Positions 11,025 to 58,462 of a stretch of 64,000 nt of DNA are shown here, piece after piece. The notes under the pieces are model-generated. The model ran no database searches. It saw only the letters and a program-made list of their open reading frames with translations, and had not been told where the DNA came from. Source of the stretch: a virus. Its lineage: Duplodnaviria; Caudoviricetes. The translations under genes were made by a program, and so were the position numbers. Numbering within the stretch: the first letter of the stretch is position 1; each line of letters starts with the position of its first letter. The DNA lies in the IMG/VR virus record IMGVR_UViG_3300028833_000141, positions 12,579 through 76,578 of that record; one strand, written 5' to 3'.

Positions 11025-14000
11025 TTAGATTGAGAAGCCGACCACGACACCATAGGCGTAGTTCGCGGCGCCGTAGTAGCCGTACGGATAGCCGTAAAAG
11101 AGGACATACATAAAGTAAGCAGAGTAGGAGGCATACGGTGAACGCTCCCACCAAAAGCTCGCACGAACCCAAAGACCACCATCATTAGCAGCAATTAAGT
11201 TGCCATCATTCAATCTCCAGAATCCCATACGAGTATGTTTAGCTTTTGTTTCTGCGCTAACATAAATATACCCTATACTTGAATTACCAGTATTAATCCA
11301 AATATCACCTTCTTTAACAGAACTACCTGTATATGCGGTAGGATCGGTATTCCCCGTATAGTATTCAGCATCTTCTGGAATAATAAACCCTGGAATCTTA
11401 ACCCTTGATTTATCAGATGTGAAGAACGAAATAGCAGTACCTTCATCCGAATATGGCTGACTTGTCCAACCGCCAAGCTCTCTGTTCGCAGGAAGATATA
11501 ACCTATCCTCAGAAGTAACAATCTCAGAAGATTGATTACCTGCTGATGCGTTAATCTTAACTGTTTTAATGATCGATTGCAGCCAATACGGAAGTCCATT
11601 CCAAACAAAGGTATTGAGGAATGTTCTCATTTCTGATTCATCCCAACCGCCAACATTTGTTGCAGTAGGATTCATTCTATGAAGCAAAGCTAAAGGATTA
11701 TTTGCTATCCACGAACTGTTGGTTTTTGTACTGGTTTGTCCGGCTAATCTATAACGATCAGCACCAGCAAATTCCATACGCTGTTTCTGATGTGGGAAAG
11801 ACGCAAGTTTGCGTGCGATTGTGTCTCCCAAATCATCGAACCAAACTTTGCACCAATGTATCCAGCCTTTGCCATAATAATCATGACCGCCATCACTGAA
11901 TCTAACAGCACCTAATGCGAGTTTCATACTTCCGCTCGTATCTCTTGTTCTGATAAGCTCCGTAACAGTTATTGCATCATTATATGTATCAGCATTTAAG
12001 TTGAATGTATAAACAAAGAGATGTGATGAACCTTTGGCATGTCTTAATACAACAATACCTCTCGTATCTGCATTTCCAACATTTACTGAGCGATCTCCCC
12101 ATTGTATAGTAGGGTTGCTGCTATATCTAAGTCTGAATCCCTCATTACCGCTCTCATCGAAACAAGAGACTAATGTTGCACCACTCTCATTTGTGTTCAA
12201 GAATTCAAAATCGATAGCCATAGTAAATGATGGCGAATCTTCATCAAATAAAGTAAAGTTGGTATCAAGATATTGAGTACCATCAAAATATCTATCTGTG
12301 ACAATAGTGTTTTCCTGAACATTATTAAATGTGAAATCAGACCCCATTGTAAATTCAAAGAAGTCTTTATCTTCAAAATAGCTACTTGCCATACCGGACT
12401 GGCATACTCCATACAGTTCTGCTGGACTCATATCACTTGCTTCTGTGCCAGCGATAGGACGTTCTTTTCTATCCCATACAGCGTATACATCAGTATCGCC
12501 TGTGATAAATCCTGTGCTCTTATCCCACTGTAAGAATACATTATAGATATATGAACTCTCTTCATCCGTTCTTGTAGGAATATCGCCTGAGTAATCAACG
12601 CATTCACCATATTCTGCGGTCTGTGTTTCCAATGGCAGACCTGCTCTTGAATACCATGTTACCGTGTACTCTCTGACTGTTGTGCTATAGACCGCCTTAA
12701 TAGATGTGGCTGCAAGAATCGCAGAATCTAAAGTATCCCATCCAGAGAAAGTATAATCATATTGTGCATCACTTTCATGTACAGGTGTAGAAATCCATCC
12801 TTCTGTAACCGGATTAGGTGGATATGAACCTCTATCCACATACCATGTGAATAAAATAGTAGTTTCATCATCATTATAATAGGTTACAAGATACTGAGTA
12901 ACAAGATTTCGTGGGTCATAAGTTACATCGAGATCAGCCCAATAATGAGTATAATTAAGAAGTTCCTGATTCCTTATCGCACCGCTGATATAAACATCAC
13001 CACTCAGCAAAGAACTATTCATAGCGATACATTTATTAAGTAAAACTGTATCTGGCAATGTCCAATCTATGCCGAGAATACGGATTGTTTGAAGTGTGTT
13101 TACTGCTGTCTGTAAGATCGATAAGGCATCAATATTTGAATATTCGCATATAAAAGTTTCCAGATTTGCGTAGCTTGCTACTACTAAATCTGTAAGATAA
13201 TTAATATTTCTAAAAGAAAGAGTTGAAATAGTTTCAGGCAAATGCGCTTTCTGCAATTTACCATTTGTTGCGAAAGATACGGCAGATATAGAAGTTCCTT
13301 CCGCATAGAAATTGAGTAAGTTAGCACAAGCTGTAAGGTTAACTGATCCCGTAAGGTTAGGGCAGTTTCTTACATCGAGCGTTTCAAGAAGAGTATTATT
13401 ACCCATATTCAATGTAGTAAGGAATGAGTTTTCGTATCCTTCCGTAGTATTACCAATAACCAAAGTTCTTAATTTAGAAGCCTTTGAAAAATCATTATCA
13501 TGTATATAACAAGCAGATAAATCGTTAAGTGCTTGTATCCTGGATGCACAGTAAATAAGAATTGCCGTATCATCCATTTCTGTGAGAGTTGTTGTTATTT
13601 CGTATTCCTGTCCGGCTTTCGCTCTAATTTGTTGTGGGTTAGAAGAGTTTCCGTAACGGACAGTTAAATACATATCGGAATAAGGAACAATTCTAAGAGT
13701 ATAATCAGGCTCAACAACTACACCGGATTGTGGAGTATTACATCTGAACATAATCTGATCAGCGGTAATGTTTGTTCCGATATATTTTGTTCCAATATAA
13801 GCCTCTTGATCTCTCTCGAATTGCCTTCTTTGGTATTTCTTTCTACCATTCATCATTTCATTGAGGAATCTGATAGTGCCACCTTGATATGTTCTGAGAT
13901 ATTTTCTCTCAATATCAAGCCGCCATAATTCCTCTGGGAATTGTGATTGCCATGCATCAAATTCATTGATAAGAGAAGTTGCGCTCCAACAATTCAAACT

Positions 14001-17000
14001 TTCTCTACTTCTGTACATGGCTTCAAGTTGACTTCCCATGAGGTTACGGATTCTGCGCCAAAATACATTTTCAGCAGCATTATAGATAAAGCCGGAAGAT
14101 GGATTTCCTTCTTGCTTATAATCTATATCTTCATGTCCGTAAGTCATTGTAAGCTCACCTGAGTTATTACATTCTGTTACTTTTATGACCTATTAAAAAA
14201 ATAGGCGAGAGAGGTTCTTCCAAAAGTGTCTTTACACTTGACCTCTCTTCTCGTGTTTCATTATTAAAAGGATTATTTCACGAGTTCAGACTATTGCATC
14301 ATCCTAAGATGTTCCTTCGCTTAGTCGTTGTTCCTCCATATATAAGCAATAAAAAACTCATGCTTTGCACGAGATTAAAGATGAATATATGGTTGGAAGG
14401 CGTTGTCCGTCCTTTCGGAGTTTCGCCGTATATCAGAAGGAATTTTTTATACTTGGCACAAATAATCTATGCCAAGTGCCGTGTCAAAGTCATAACCCCA
14501 TAAGTCGAAACGATAACCGTTATTTATCGCTGCTTTGGCATTATTGATAGTATAATTACGAGCATCAGAACCCATTTCGGTAGCTTCGGCTTCTGTGATA
14601 TAAGTTTTACCGTAGTGCCAGAATGTATTCTTAGCTCTGTTATCAATCATTGTGTATCTTTCAGTAAACAGATACCAATAAAGCGGTGATTCAGATATAA
14701 ACCAATCATCAATTTCTGATACAAATTCAGCGTCAGTCGAAGTGATAACCCATTCATACATATCGCGCCATACCTGTTTTGACGCTTCTTGCTGTGCTTC
14801 GATCTCCGCACTTGAAATTGTCTCACCGTCTTTTGTTCCCATATCATATCTAAACTCAAACGAATCATCCCATGCTTCATATAGAGATTGGCGTTTCAGA
14901 TTGTTCTCATTATTCCATTGTTCAGAAGTAATAGGGTAAACCATAGAAACACCCTCGTTAGGGTCATAAGTGATTTCATCATTTTCGTCAAGATAAACAC
15001 CAGTCTGAAACCAACTGTTAGGAAGTGTATTATCTGATACCTCGACAACAAATTCTGCTAAATCTGTCGGATCATTTACACGAGTGTTATCAGTTTTCTT
15101 TGAATCTCCAATATTTCCAATTCCATAGAAATGCCAGCCTGTATCGGCAAATTCTCTATGAGTAGAAACATCAGGATCACTTTCTTTAATAAAGATAACG
15201 CAGTTGCAAAATTCCATTGAGTTTTTAACAAATGGATTTCGCTTCTGTCCTGGCGTTTTATAAGGAATATAATCATTAAATCTCTTTTGGAGAAGGGCAT
15301 TATTCGCATTCTCAGAACTTGCGATATTCACCTTGATATTAAACCAATCATTAGGTACGGATGTACGAGTCAATGCGACTTTACCGCTACCATCTGAATA
15401 TTGTGTCCCATCGCCAAGCGTAAGTTCTGTAATATATGTTGAGTCAAGCGGAATCTTACTTACGACTTGATGTTCGCCATCAAAGCCGAAGATAATATCA
15501 ATATTTCTTCCTGCATAACCGTATTCATTTGATGTAGTTCCTTCAATTTGTTATCCTATAAGCTTTTTATCTTATAGTTCTAATAGTTACAATTCCTATT
15601 AGTTCAGCATATCTTTTCACCCTCGTTATAGCGTTAGGTTTGCAGTTCGCTAATCTGCTCAAATCACCCTATATGTGATTGTGCTGCGGACTCGTGGGAA
15701 GATTATATTCTGCTATGCAGTTTCACTTCCTATGCGTTGCGTGTGACTATATTGTTACACATAGCCTTCCACTCTGATTTGCATTTCAGCATCCCAGATT
15801 TCTTCCGCAGTAAATATATCTATATTTCTATAGATAGTGGGTAAGTTTTTCGCCCAGCATGATAACCATTGACGAATCTCCAATTATCTAAAATAGGATC
15901 ACCATTTTTATGAATACACTCAACATTCGTATATTTAACATAGTCCTTTTTATCGTTAGTAAAATGAGGACAATCGATTTTTATAACTTTCAAATCCGGA
16001 CAAGCATTAGCAACCGATTCCGGTGTTAATGTATTATTCTCGTCATAGATTTGATTTCTCTCATATCTTGCAATCATTGTTTCTGCGTCTGGCGCATCAG
16101 CAATAAAGTTCTTCAAGATATTTGAATCGGTCAAAGACGAAGAGTATGCTTTCATTCTATAAATGTATACATCACAATCATCTGAGCCGATAGTGATAGG
16201 AACAGGCTGATACTGATAAAGTCTGTGTGCATCACTATAAAGCATTGGACGAGCAGCAACACCATCCTCGTAACTCATAATATATGATGTCGCATCTTCA
16301 TTTTCCGTATCAAGCGGATTGATATTAAACTCATATTCAATAATATCCTCTTCGCTGTAAGGAGTATAAAGATTATCAGTTGACGAGTACAGATACGCTT
16401 CGTGAGCGTTCATCTTTAATCCAACCTTTACATTATCCTCAGTAGGATAACAAGACAGGAATGTGGTCTGATTATCCCTGACATTCATTGTCTTGAATCT
16501 AACCTTAAATTCCGCACCGGATTGTTTAGGATCATTAGCAAATAAGTTATAGCTAATATACGCCCTTGTTCCAGCCTTTACGCAGAAATATTGATTTCCG
16601 TCAGAATCAAGATTGTAACCACCGTTATTCCAATCGAAGTTTTCAGATACAGACATTTTGACATTAGCATTATTAGCATCTTGCCAAAGCCTGTTTGCGC
16701 TACTATTAGACATTCCAACAGGGTTAAAATCAAATTCGAGATTTGCTGTGACAGGGGATATATCGTATCCAAGTTCTGCAACATCAACCTTGATGGTTAC
16801 TGATGTAGCACCGCAAGTAATTGTCAATTCATGTAAAGCAATTTCTTCTGACTTGAACGCCCATGTATTAGCGTATGAAGATAATCTCAGAGTATTAACA
16901 ATTTCACCGTCTACTGATAATGTAACAGATGGGGTAGTAGTTCTTGGATCAAAAACAACATAAGGAATTGTAACGGTATTATACTGTTTCGCTTCAACTT

Positions 17001-19275
17001 CACCATAATGATCGTATCTGTAAATACAGCCGATAATTGGTACTGTAGATTCCGAATCGTACCACATAATATCCTTGAAGATATGTTCTGTTTCAATTTC
17101 TACATTATTGATTTCCGCTGTCATCCAACATTCAAGTAAATGTGCTCCATGTGCTTGTGATGGGAGAGAATATGACTGTAATACGCCGGATGCAGAGGTT
17201 GTTACAGATGTTAATTCAACGCCATCAAGCTTGAAATGAACAGTTTTTTGAATCGCTCCATAAGGTGTATATGTAAAGTTAACCGCTGAACCTACAGGAT
17301 AAGTATTCCTATCGCTGAAATTTGATTCAAGTCTTACATCCGTTACTTGAACAGTCCAACTCTTTACATTGATAGAGCCGCCTTCGTCTGTGACAGTCAG
17401 CGTAAACTTCTGACTTCCAATAGAACAATAATCAGTAATATCAAAGGTATTTCTGCCTTGTACAAGGTTTCCGCTCATAACCGTTGTTGAGCCACGTTTA
17501 ATTGTATATGTACCATCTACATATTCATTGTCTGAATCTGTCGATGAATAATCAATAACAATCAGAACAGGATCAGTGGTAGTACAAATAATAGGGGATG
17601 GGGTGATCTTATCTACAACAAGATTTGTAGTAGAACTTGAACCGCCACCGCCACCACTCGGAAGTGTGAACTGACTTTTTACTGTTTCTGTCGAACCATC
17701 GACTTCATATAATGTATATACATAAGTCTGATTATTTTCAGTCGTTAATGTCGCATAGTATGAAAGTCCTTCAACATCAATAGAATTGATTTGTTGTGCA
17801 AGCCTTTCAAGTGTTCTGCTCAGTCCTGTAATATTCTGCGTATTAACACTTACTTGGTCATTAAGTGCGCTTGTCATTACATCGATTTCACTCTTTGTGT
17901 AAGCATCTGAACCGATAGGACGGAAAGCATTATTAATCCATCTATAATGCTGATATAATCCTGCTGAGTTCAGAACATAATAATCAGTATATTCGTTTCC
18001 GCTTTCAGGAAGGGCAGATAATACTTCTGCTACTGAACCACCAACGATTTCCCAATATCCTGAGATATATTTATAGTAAATATAAGTTCCGTTATTTGCG
18101 AGAATGTAATCTGTATCTTCATCACCGACTTCTGGCAATTCAGTTACTACTAATGTTGTTGCGCTACCGAATGTATCCCATCTTGATACATTATTTTCAT
18201 CTGTAATCCACCAATATTTATCAAAACTGCCTGATGAATTTGGTATTAAATAGAATGTACGATTTTCTCCGACCGCTGGCAGTTCATTAACAATTGTGAT
18301 TGAAAATGCGTCATAGTCAGCTAATGCAGCCTGAGTGTAGTTTCTCGCAAGCATCAGTATGCCTTGAAGCGCATCATGCAGATTATTATAGGTGAGCGTA
18401 TCGCTTACTTGATAGGCTGCTCTGACAATACTTGCCAAATTATCAACGTCAAGTTGTACTGCGTCAGCCTTTGCTTTTGCATAATCGAATATATCTACTC
18501 GTCTGTTCTGAGGGTCATAGACAGACGGTTGCATAGCATTATCTGCTTTTACAAGCGTTGATTCAAAATCGGTATCGACTTTTGATCTTGATAAAGTACC
18601 GTCTGCAATACTCAGCGCAGCCATAGAACCAGAAGAAATGAGTTCAGCAAGTTCAGCCTGTACAGCATCATCAATAGCATTTGCGATAACATCACTGTTT
18701 TCAAGTGCGTCAAGCTGTTGTGCCATTCTATCGACTTGTGCCTGAGAAGCCTTTAATGATAATGCACTATTTATACTGTTGATGCTTGTTCCAATATCAT
18801 CTATATCCGACTGATCCGCTTTTGTATTAATCTGTCTTTGTAATTCTCTGTCGGCTGCAACTAACTCAGCAGAGTTTTGTTCATTCCATGTAGTAAGATT
18901 ATTTACTCTTGTTACAAGCTGTGTATATAATGATTGTGAAATATCTGTACTTTGAGCATCAGACACAAGAATATTAGGATCAATATTCAGAGTTAAATAA
19001 TTTGTAGTAGCAATTACATCTTCATCACTACCATATAACATAACGGTGCAAGTTCCAGGTTGTATTTCCGATGGTAAATAAGCTCCGTTATCCTCATCGA
19101 GATAAACATTATAAAATACTCCCTCTTGACCAAACTGAGCGAATGTAGTAAGACTATCCCATTCGCTTGGTAAATTAAATACCAGCTTTATAAAATTTTG
19201 TGTACCTTCAATAAGTGTTTTAAGGTTTGTCGTAACTTTTAATTTTTGATTAACGACAGCTATTAAAATTTCCAT
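11025..19275 (-). CDS. DGR-targeted tail fibre/receptor-binding protein, 3 exons (19275-15852, 15543-14469, 14169-11025), 2547 aa spliced
   Basis: Exons sum to 7644 nt = 2548 codons in frame; junctions restore HAGQGTTS and ALGINNSG. Contains BppU-like N-term, CotH-like, LRR-like, B-repeat-like, LamG-like and DUF6273/CLec-like C-terminal regions. Confidence 0.88.
11034..11173 (-). repeat. DGR variable region (VR) at the 3' end of the target gene
   Basis: About 25 substitutions at TR adenines, 1 G>T and one extra codon versus TR; GC-rich GGTGTCGTGGTCGG near the 3' end. Confidence 0.97.
14170..14468 (-). mobile_element. Group I intron (299 nt, no ORF)
   Basis: P1 ACUUGGCAU/GUGCCAAGU with U.G at the splice site; R CAACGACUA, S AAUAGUCU, P3 UUCCUUC/GAAGGAA; ends in G; removal restores the frame. 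Confidence 0.92.
15544..15851 (-). mobile_element. Group I intron (308 nt, no ORF), variant: C.A at the 5' splice site, P7 GCAUA/UAUGC
   Basis: P2 with GAAA loop, P3 CUGCGGA/UCCGCAG, P6a GGCUAU/AUAGUC, P9 hairpins, terminal G; removal restores the frame (C+AA = Gln). Confidence 0.82.
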
Positions 19276-28600: not shown

Positions 28601-31600
28601 TGACTTCCTGCATCTTTTTGCCGTAAGACGAAATATTCAGTTTACCATTTGCAACACCTTTACGGATATTCTTTGCAGCTTTTTTGCTGATTAGTTTTCT
28701 CTTAACAGCTTGATTCAACACAGAATTGGCTTTACTTTGATAACGATTAGACGCTATGCTTTCATTTCCGATTTGCGTAAGAGAAGCGGTAATAGCAGAC
28801 GAATATTGACTTGCAGCTTTGTCGTAATTGCCACGCTCAATATTTAAGTCCGCACGCTTTGTGAATCTTTCTATCTTTTTGGTCTGGCGTTCGAGGCGTA
28901 TTTCGATCCAATCAAATAATTTCTCAAACCAATTTTGGAATTTCTCTAAAGCCTTTCCACCGCCTTTTGCGTAAGCAGTTCCTTCTGCGAGGGCAGAACC
29001 ATTAGCCATAGTTCTTCCACGACCAAGAGCATATCCATTATTTAATAATGAACGAGATTGGAGGTGATTAAATACAATCGCATCTTTTGGCAAATCAACG
29101 AATTCTGCGCCTTTTTCGCCAACAGTATGCCAAGTTGCATTGTGAGGGTCTACTACGATTTCCTCCATTTATATTTTCGCTGATTCGCTACATCAGCGAG
29201 ATTGTAAAACAATCCTCATACTTTCGCATGAGATTAGACTATATCTTTATGTGATATATAATTCACATATTTACCATTTCGGATTACCAATCGCTTGCAA
29301 TCCTACTCCCTAAAAGGGATAGTCGTTGAACCTTTTCCTATTCGGAACTTGGCTGCTGATTATCCAATTCATACAGTTTTCAAACTTTCACGATTAGTCA
29401 TTTTTCATACTTGCGTTGTAGTCTGTATGACTCTAAGGATGTTCCAGCAATTAGATAAATTTGCTCTATACATTACTGTATAGAGGGGCATACGAAATAC
29501 CCAATTCGCCCACTAAAGTACGACCACCTGCGCCAACGCCCCAATAGCCTCCGGCATATGATGTGCCGTAAGCGTGGGCAGAACCATTTGCTCGATTTCC
29601 ACCGCCTGATGGTGGGGAATTAGTTGATACATTCGTCCAATATATGTATCTATATTGATTTGAAACAGATAGAGTGTTGGTATAATTATCTTTCCAGTTT
29701 ACTATTCCGTTAGCAGTTTGGTCTGGCATTTTATCATAATTATCTTTCCAGTTTACTGTTCCGTTAGCATTTTGATCTGGAAGTGGATCAACATTCATAT
29801 CTAATGCAACTGCAAAATCGTTGTTCTGCAACGCTGATTTAATACTATCAACAGAAGAGGTATCTACTTCTGCATCAATTTCCAATTCCGCAGATTGATC
29901 TTGGATTTTCCCTTGAAGTTCTGCTAATTTAGCATCTGATTCAGATGTATCTGCTCCAACTGAAACTTCTATATCTCTTTGGTTTGAAACTTGATTAAAT
30001 TCATTTAATAAACTAACAAGTTCTTTTTGCCCCTTAGATAAGCCTTTTGTGTCTACTTTCAGTATCGCAGGTTTATCAAGTTCTTGTAATTCCGATTCAC
30101 AATAAGCAATTATTTTATTTGCGTTTTCAATATCAGAAGTATCAACATCAGGACGAAGCTTCAAATCGTTCATTTGATTGATATTTCTTTCAAGAACTTT
30201 TCTATAATCATCGCCTTCGGCTGTAATAGTTAGGGCAGAACCTATACCAACTTCATCTTTAAATTTACTTAGTTTTTCTAAAGATTTAACAGCATCCTCT
30301 GCACCATCTTTCAAATCGCCATGAGCGATAGTGTCACCAACATCACTTAATGAGTATTCAAAATCTGAAAGAGATAATCCTGCTTCGGCAAGCTGAGTCT
30401 GTAAATCAGACAGTTTTTCTTCGCCAATGCTTTCGGTAAATTTCTCCATAGAGAAAGATGCTTGATCTGCTTTCGGAACATATTCACTTATGATGTCCGA
30501 TAAGGCTTGTTGCTTTTGAGCCGCAACTTCGGTAGCTGTTCCAGAATATAAAACTGCCTCATTGTATTTACGAACAGTATCAACACATCCCTCGTAAACA
30601 TTTCCGTTAGCATCAAAGAGGGAGGCGTAATTCTCTTGCATTGTCGCAGCATCTTCCGACATTTTCTGCGTAAGTTCTTGTGATTCTTGTTGGATGCGTT
30701 CTAATTCTGCTTTATCATCTTGATAAGCCTGTTGTCTTGCATTCCTTGCAAATGGAGAAACATCTGCCATATCTTCCGGAGTATAGCGTTGCATCTTTGT
30801 GCTGAGTGCTTCTTCTTGCCTATTAAGAGAATTAAGCTGATTTTGTCTTGCACTATACCGATCTATTAAAGATAATGAACCAAATGAATCAGGTTTACTA
30901 AGAACCTCATTAGCCGCTGTTGCTGCACTACGACCTTGAATCTCGGCAAGCCTCTCTTGCAGTTTGATTTGGTTTTCAAGAAGTCTATTTTGCCGTTCAA
31001 GATTATTTAATTCTTGTTGTTCATTTATAGATAACTTATCTTTATTCTGTAATTCTTTTCTGCGAATATTATTTTCCGAAAGCTCTTTATTTAAAGATTC
31101 TAAACTCGATTGAGTTTCATTATATGATTTTCTTGAATCTTCGGCTTTCTTTTGCATTTCACCAAAAGAGGTAGTGCAAAGATCAATAAGTGCAATTGTT
31201 CCGGCAATTCCGGCAGAAACGCCAATAAATGATCCTAAAGCTGTAGTAGATAATCCTAAATATTTTGCTAAAGAAGCAAAGGATTTTTCAACACCGCCTA
31301 ATTTAGCAATCTTTAATATGCCAGCGATTCCTGCTCCTGTTCCTACAGTTCCAAATAAACCAATCTCTCCTGTGATAGAATCAATAATTCCAAGAATTTG
31401 TGTAAGTCCATCAACGACTACACCCATATCTTCCCTTGTGAAAAGATTCTGAGCAATGCCTACTCCGGTTTCTCTAAGTGCATTAAGTTTAAATGTGAGG
31501 GATTCCGATACGGTTTCCATCTCTGCCATAGCTGAACCGGCACTTTCAGACATGGATTTAAGTGATGATTCTACGGCATCAAAATTGTCAAGAATCGCGG

Positions 31601-58376: not shown

Positions 58377-58462
58377 TGGCGGCTTATGAAGGATTTGAAC
58401 CTGCAACCTCTCGGTTAACTCTCGGTTAACAGCCGATTGCTCTGCCGTTGAGCTAATAAGCC
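58377..58462 (-). tRNA. tRNA-Asn(GTT) with an 11-nt internal tandem duplication (possibly a pseudo-tRNA)
   Basis: Acceptor GGCTTAT/ATAAGCC-G-CCA; D arm GCTC/GAGC; loop CTGTTAA; TTCAAAT loop; GTTAACCGAGA occurs twice. Confidence 0.8.

Follow-up and report, generated by a model that had tools for sequence, protein, structure and literature searches.

A predicted group I intron with C opposite A at its 5' splice site and an altered P7 in a phage tail-fibre gene

Small group I introns of subgroup IA2 are known from phages, such as the orf142 introns of Staphylococcus phage Twort and the DNA polymerase intron of Bacillus phage SPO1 with I-HmuI. Here, we describe a predicted group I intron in a gut-phage tail-fibre gene of the IMG/VR viral record IMGVR_UViG_3300028833_000141, which is 76.6 kb long with a completeness of about 50%; the window is the whole stretch of DNA that was analysed, 64,000 nucleotides (nt) from positions 12,579 to 76,578 of that record. 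Like the Twort and SPO1 introns, the intron and its relatives are small, lie in essential or late genes of phages and have a core of paired elements P1 to P10 and an extra element between P7 and P3'. They also share the GCAACG...-type J6/7, the ...GAAC-P9-...GUAACA..UUG 3' end and HNH (I-HmuI-like) genes in a peripheral loop. Unlike those introns, the window intron has a P7 of GCAUA/UAUGC and not GACUA/UAGUC, a single P7.1 (with a UGAA/GAAUAUAAU loop) replaces P7.1 and P7.2, the Rfam group I model RF00028 does not detect it, and C, not U, precedes the cut.

Few features of group I introns are as well conserved as the U·G wobble at the 5' splice site, to which very few natural exceptions are known. 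Two such exceptions, mitochondrial cox1 introns with C·G at this site, were reportedly described by Hur and Waring (Nucleic Acids Res 1995; 23:4466), who raised selection at the protein level as a possible cause. That case resembles ours: both concern natural exceptions to U·G, selection at the protein level is also the explanation reached here, as a codon-imposed C, and the relatives of the window intron at the same site have exactly C-G. The cox1 introns are fungal mitochondrial and C-G, whereas the window intron has C·A and belongs to a phage family in which U·G, C-G, and C·A occur side by side. Cleavage sites with C·A are said to have been engineered by Doudna, Cormack and Szostak in 1989. 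In earlier trans-excision-splicing work, c-A was second in reactivity after u-G, and C·A introduced in the laboratory is functional in constructs derived from Tetrahymena, where it ranks second to U·G (PMC11417360). The window intron resembles the engineered Tetrahymena and Pneumocystis ribozymes in having C·A in the place of U·G, and there accurate cleavage and ligation were supported (PMC11417360); those pairs are laboratory-made, while the window C·A is natural and known from sequence alone. Natural C-G exceptions and engineered C·A sites are thus already known, and a limited literature search turned up no splice site with C·A in nature.

The position of the intron is fixed by the protein that it interrupts. 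On the minus strand, an open reading frame (ORF) at 15820-19275 ends ten codons past ...NGYHAG, and a second open frame starts directly after 15544. Exon 1 ends in ...CAUGCUGGGC and the intron begins with GAAAAACUUACCCAC. In the frame of the window, ...GCU GGG C closes exon 1 and AA GGA ACU opens exon 2; joined, they read GGG CAA GGA (Gly-Gln-Gly), with the Gln codon CAA split as C^AA (carets mark splice sites) and its first base, C(-1), at 15852. Among 120 homologous proteins, which come mainly from gut-phage contigs of about 150-160 kb, 85 run uninterrupted through the junction, all with an invariant Gln motif preceded by (H/I/L)(A/S/N), and about 35 lose homology at exactly the same residue and go on as R... 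(RT*, RTPLPLIYGN..., RNIPCPLYMET...). At the DNA level, 74 of 80 IMG/VR loci have GGN CAR GGN ACN at the junction, and in the other six this is interrupted, always at the same nucleotide, by 446-905 nt of inserted sequence.

Alternative junctions were considered and rejected. If both splice sites are moved by a single base in either direction, Gln is replaced by Glu or Arg. Use of the upstream CAA of the intron tail (GGG^...^CAAAUUGAAGG) adds Ile-Glu in the window and a stop in relatives, and junctions placed after a U yield stops or frameshifts. The homology and the failure of these alternatives therefore make the junction C^G...G^AA unique. An earlier note on this DNA had stated that no other junction gives an in-frame Gln, and had named homologues lacking Gln at this site as evidence that would count against it; the 85 intron-less proteins, all of which keep Gln, and the 74 intron-less DNA loci agree with that statement. 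The features of the locus are as follows.

15852..19275, minus strand: tail-fibre exon 1, with 1141 codons and C(-1)
15852..15856, minus strand: 5' strand of P1, the last five exon bases UGGGC (GGGGC in relatives)
15544..15851, minus strand: group I intron, 308 nt, without an ORF; first base G at 15851, terminal G (omega-G) at 15544
15843..15845, minus strand: P10 strand CUU (intron positions 7-9), paired with the AAG that opens exon 2 (15541-15543)
15838..15842, minus strand: internal guide sequence ACCCA (intron positions 10-14); A10 (15842) faces C(-1) and CCCA pairs with UGGG
15817..15836, minus strand: P2 hairpin UAUCUAUA-GAAA-UAUAGAUA; double changes in 8/8 pairs, and present in the minimum-free-energy (MFE) fold
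15804..15810, minus strand: 5' strand of P3, CUGCGGA, with its partner UCCGCAG at 15684-15690; 6/7 pairs compensatory
15741..15798, minus strand: P4 (UCUGG/UCAGA), P5 (UGC/GCA), P6 (GUG/CAC), and P6a (GGCUAU/AUAGUC), from covariation and the MFE fold
15731..15737, minus strand: 5' strand of P7, ACGCAUA, that is A, bulged C, G of the guanosine-binding pair, C, A, U, A
15697..15730, minus strand: P7.1 (GGAAG/CUUCC) with inner stem CUGC/GCAG and internal loop UGAA / GAAUAUAAU; 4/5 pairs compensatory, 99.3% paired
15618..15683, minus strand: P8 region, about 45 nt larger than in other family members according to the alignments; internal pairing predicted from the fold
15606..15611, minus strand: 3' strand of P7, UAUGCU, with J8/7 (AAAAGA) just before it
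15556..15602, minus strand: P9 (CUAAUAG/CUAUUAG) and P9.1 (CUAUAAG/CUUAUAG), from covariation and alignments
14469..15543, minus strand: exon 2 (AA, then GTTSNEYG... to ...DFDTALG), terminated by a second, canonical intron at 14170-14468

The assignment to group I is carried by covariation within a family of related introns. Family members were searched for with nhmmer profiles, and the statements on covariation refer to a family alignment, A2, of 30 sequences and more than 400 columns. RNAalifold found P3, P4, P5, P6a, P7.1, P9, and P9.1 in A2 unaided, with compensatory changes in 33 of 37 pairs. In the full structure, which includes P2, P6, and the P7 pseudoknot, 89.8% of the cells are paired as compared to 28-41% when the 3' partners are slid, and changes on both sides are seen in 50 of 61 pairs as compared to 29-36 of 61 in the slid controls. 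The covariation score is 0.613, versus at most 0.117 after sliding, and the observed values were reached by none of 500 shuffles. P7 crosses P3 in the P3/P7 pseudoknot, and the helices of the P3-P8 and P4-P6 domains all have compensatory support. Folded as a single sequence, the window intron gives P2, P3, P4, P5, P6, P6a, P7.1, P9, and P9.1 (-75.3 kcal/mol, z = -4.79).

A hidden Markov model (HMM) built from 29 family members at other sites, with the window sequence left out, matched 15845-15665 (E = 8.7e-37) and 15627-15544 (E = 4.2e-19), the second match ending exactly at the terminal G 15544; this model gave no further match anywhere in the 64-kb window. The earlier note had called the element a group I intron with P2, P3, P6a, P9, and an extension of P7, ending in G. 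Both the covariation, including that of the P7 pseudoknot, and the family HMM match bear this out; the named stems are all present in the MFE fold, the extension corresponds to P7.1, and the last base is the G at 15544, in a family 3' end of ...GAUAACAnnUUG. A weak match to the CRISPR-DR8 model on the plus strand at 15586-15622 (18.4 bits against a threshold of 39), antisense to the P9 region, was taken as chance.

As in other group I cores, P1 and P10 are contiguous on the guide, which is CUU-A-CCCA in the window and (C)CUU-G-CCCC in its relatives. The near-universal U·G at the 5' splice site is missing from the window (C·A) and from the same-site relatives (C-G); this pair is near-universal rather than strictly defining, and both fall in the known class of rare exceptions. 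Between P7 and P3', A2 shows a single covarying stem (P7.1/7.1a), as compared to the P7.1 and P7.2 of subgroup IA2, and by its predicted architecture the window intron is IA-like. The internal loop of P7.1 (UGAA / GAAUAUAAU; A2 columns 176-219) is almost invariant across the family and its flanking stems covary freely, so that the loop is probably a tertiary-contact motif.

The lack of an Rfam group I match and the two ORFs returned by gene callers might suggest that the element is no intron but an insertion of another kind, such as a MITE-like element, a site of translational bypass or recoding, or an intergenic spacer between two separately translated proteins. However, the element has the full group I architecture with a P3/P7 pseudoknot supported by covariation, its family HMM match stops exactly at the terminal G, and its same-site relatives carry an HNH homing endonuclease in the P9 loop. 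Intron-less alleles are moreover colinear to the nucleotide, and the head of exon 2 has no start codon. We therefore regard such explanations as extremely improbable.

The P7 of the window intron comprises A-U, a bulged C, G-C, C-G, A-U, U-A, and A-U (ACGCAUA/UAUGCU). The RF00028 consensus and the intron of the window that Rfam does detect have GACUA/UAGUC, while this intron has GCAUA/UAUGC. The helix is 100% paired in 30 of 30 sequences, with compensatory changes in three of its six pairs, and compensated variants are found in L083b (GCGUA/UACGC), L086b (GAGUA/UACUC), and L122b (G...GCAUA/UAUGCC). The guanosine-binding G-C pair (A2 columns 166/314) is invariant in all 30 sequences, column 165 holds the bulged C, and the compensated change keeping this pair is as it had been read in the window alone. 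The suggestion of a distinct lineage is supported, with two refinements: the lineage exists and is missed by Rfam, but the altered P7 is found throughout the family and is not private to the window, and C·A is not typical of the lineage at this insertion site. The altered P7 and the C·A pair are independent oddities, because the P7 variant marks a family whose other members use U·G.

This family is widespread, with members in gut phages, other phages and bacterial genes. The motifs GCAACGCAUAG and GAAAAGAUAUGCUGAAC are present in nearly all members. A profile of the shared core, applied to IMG/VR loci retrieved by a 14-mer of the core, revealed about 50 further copies, mostly compact (240-290 nt) and ORF-less. 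In species-representative bacterial genomes, a combined 3' pattern is found at 109 loci, 99 of them also with the 5' core; Clostridia are among the further bacterial hosts. Many genomes of Neobacillus, Mesobacillus, Metabacillus, Virgibacillus, and Oceanobacillus have copies, some of about 1.2 kb that presumably contain an ORF; in these Bacillaceae (L253, L302, L233, L246, and others) the intron lies in a chromosomal gene, ...QQVVATNPCG^EQPLAPYSVCNL... (EQPL), which from its active-site motif looks like nrdJ, encoding class II ribonucleotide reductase. In metagenome-assembled genomes of Selenomonadales (L229, L249, L262), it lies in ...ERIRRITG^YLV..., which from its glycyl-radical motif looks like nrdD, encoding anaerobic ribonucleotide reductase. 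The gene nrdD is of the type that hosts the T4 sunY/nrdD intron.

Two further phages, C. difficile phage phiCD211 and Staphylococcus phage 6ec, have family copies in their tape-measure genes. In phiCD211 (L225), the family intron at about 2295-2577 lies a few tens of bases from a canonical Intron_gpI at about 2600-2865 in the same gene. In phage 6ec (L224), a family member at about 1560-2572 splits the gene, and the record annotates an HNH ORF inside it and no intron.

We then compared the cleavage-site pair across the family. In the window, P1 consists of U-A, G-C, G-C, and G-C, followed by C(-1) opposite A10; along the guide 5'-CUU-A-CCCA-3', CCCA pairs with exon UGGG and CUU with the first three bases of exon 2. 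The C·A that had been claimed from the window is thus found as A10 (15842) opposite C(-1) (15852). At the outer end of P1, the window has U-A where the relatives have G-C; this compensated change goes with a synonymous GCU/GCG difference between the exons and fixes the register of P1. No alternative guide partner that would yield U·G or C-G was found within the intron.

Introns at the identical position were found in L011, L021-L023, L028, L079, L207, L209, and others. All same-site relatives recovered from IMG/VR and metagenomes have the exon GGGGC, the guide (C)CUU-G-CCCC and a Watson-Crick C-G pair, and they span at least five sequence types (L011/L021, L023/L209, L028, L079, and L207). The canonical U·G is found in the family at no fewer than 15 other insertion sites. 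The splice sites given here were checked by hand, as automatic calling from P1/P10 and frame was too noisy, with spurious upstream helices winning. Those with U·G follow exons ending in GGCGU, CAUGGU, GAGCCU, GGGCU, CCGCCU, AAUGGU, ACGGU, AAUUCCU, UUGCCU, GGGU, and AGGU, as well as UGUGGU in nrdJ, ACAGGU in nrdD, and AAGGU at a second site in the tail gene. In Selenomonadales nrdD, what had first looked like C-G turned out, once inspected, to be this ACAGGU with U·G. The P10 strand abuts the partner of position -1 in the window as it does in the U·G members, in which P10 has 4-8 base pairs.

The C at the cleavage site is forced by the codon, because the Gln codon is read as C^AA and a U would make a UAA stop. 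Guide position 10 is G in both neighbouring lineages; by parsimony, G is therefore the older state.

Most same-site relatives have in the P9 loop an ORF of about 180 codons, with matches to NUMOD4 and HNH_3 and, below threshold, to the NUMOD-like domain of I-HmuI. HNH homing endonucleases are the usual type in phage group I introns. An endonuclease ORF in a peripheral loop and patchy occupancy (6/80 IMG/VR loci) mark these relatives as mobile introns. Another insertion site, site 2 (..WFNIKV^NIASSEN..), lies 71 codons downstream in the tail gene and holds a family member in L005:3313-, L011:3747-4810, and L180:6852-7143, with AAGGU, U·G, and a P10 of 7 base pairs; the window has no intron there. 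The core of the window intron is 80.8% identical to the site-2 intron of L005 as compared to 73-76% to the same-site introns. Its diagnostic positions are mixed, with the P1-P2 5' end and the 3' end more like site 1 and parts of the core like site 2. Simple derivation from the same-site C-G lineage was not supported, given this closer core and these mixed positions, and the sequences suggest that the window copy may be a mosaic or recombinant, a separate colonisation of the site, or a product of plain divergence.

Taken together, it is highly probable that the window holds a functional group I intron that would splice at C^G...G^AA. In the mechanism that we propose, which is the standard one in two steps, the guide 5'-CUU-A-CCCA-3' would align the exons through CCCA-UGGG (P1) and CUU-AAG (P10), with A10 facing the final base of exon 1. 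Bound at the invariant P7 G-C pair, a free guanosine would attack after C(-1); the terminal G 15544 would then occupy the guanosine site, and the exons would be ligated to give the junction GGGCAAGGA. The two pairs below the guanosine-binding pair, C-G and A-U in place of A-U and C-G, are a family trait common to many phage and bacterial introns. The change from G to A in the guide would be a derived one that restores a wobble-like geometry (C·A+), with the window copy still splicing. That C·A acts as a selected substitute for the wobble rather than a tolerated mismatch has, in our judgement, slightly less than an even chance. The composite reading, in which a natural intron with a protonated C·A+ wobble evolved by G to A in the guide within an uncatalogued, widespread subclass with a permuted P7, is put forward tentatively, as a possibility to which we give rather less than even weight.

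Several points weigh against this reading. Splicing is here deduced from DNA; A opposite C(-1) occurs in a single metagenomic sequence, the window copy, and P1 of this copy has just four Watson-Crick pairs. The copy has no endonuclease gene, which was lost or never present, and its P8 is enlarged, so it could be decaying, with the change from G to A neutral or harmful. The HNH-carrying relatives, presumably the active mobile forms, use C-G, and the change need not be adaptive; as these relatives manage with C-G, wobble geometry is not essential in the family. The intron might also splice with C(-1) unpaired or mismatched, the site being set by the length of P1, P10, and tertiary docking, without a protonated wobble or pH dependence. 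The C-G of the relatives shows that the family tolerates a non-wobble geometry, and P10 and the register of P1 are kept whatever the pair at -1; set against the proposed wobble, we consider this version somewhat unlikely.

A further possibility is that the window copy is a decaying, splicing-impaired remnant, which lost its endonuclease gene and gained the guide change and the P8 insertion, so that the tail fibre would be truncated or low in amount and C·A would have no function. The missing ORF, the P8 some 45 nt larger and the status of sole copy with A10 are in line with it, and the source record is an incomplete viral fragment (about 50%). On the other hand, both exons are still open and 72-80% identical to intact homologues, and most family members are equally ORF-less (240-290 nt). 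The stems P2, P3, P7.1, and P9.1 and the outer P1 pair differ from those of relatives by compensated changes, and selection for pairing therefore continued after divergence. Decay is thus an improbable account, and we favour an intron that still splices.

The earlier expectation that covariance models may miss the intron was confirmed with Infernal: in cmscan searches, RF00028, with a gathering threshold of 50 bits, did not match it at E<=10 on the 64 kb, on 1.4 kb or on 341 nt. In eight other loci, RF00028 left all family members unmatched and found five canonical introns. RF00028 was also silent, even at E<=0.1, on the canonical intron at 14170-14468, so the P7 change cannot by itself account for the failure. 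The annotated canonical Intron_gpI of phiCD211 likewise went unreported in the E-value Rfam run; the phiCD211 record annotates only this canonical neighbour and leaves the family member unannotated. The low sensitivity of RF00028 for phage introns is general, as has been stated by others too (PMC11878797). A recent intron database was seeded by Infernal hits, with the intron start set by 'the terminal U' (PMC11835236). Because of this seeding and this definition, the family is probably absent from it, and databases seeded with RF00028 in general probably do not contain it (from PMC11835236 and PMC11878797). Because RF00028 does not detect the family, genes with its introns get annotated as split, truncated or pseudogenes.

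The tail-fibre and tape-measure genes of the window hold several introns, similar to the pile-ups of introns in structural genes of phiCD211 and 6ec. The earlier note had described the other four introns as canonical, with U·G and a GAC-type P7; two of them were checked. The intron at 14170-14468 on the minus strand, in the same tail-fibre gene, has both features: its exon ends in ...CUUGGCAU, paired with GUGCCAAG in a P1 of 8 base pairs with U·G, its P7 is ACGACUA/UAGUCU, and its last base is G. For the intron at 29215-29508 on the minus strand, the P7 was found to be ACGACUA/UAGUCU as well. Elsewhere in the window, a tRNA match of 54.6 bits lies at 58380-58462 on the minus strand; in the region of the variable loop, it has an insertion of 12 nt that the model lacks.

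For the phage, these results suggest that a full-length tail fibre would be made only once the intron has been spliced out. For the family, U·G (site 2), C-G (the relatives at site 1), and C·A (the window copy at site 1) are found within one gene and provide a comparative set for ribozyme enzymology. If the proposed reading is true, this series would allow a direct test of cleavage-site pair recognition and its pH dependence.

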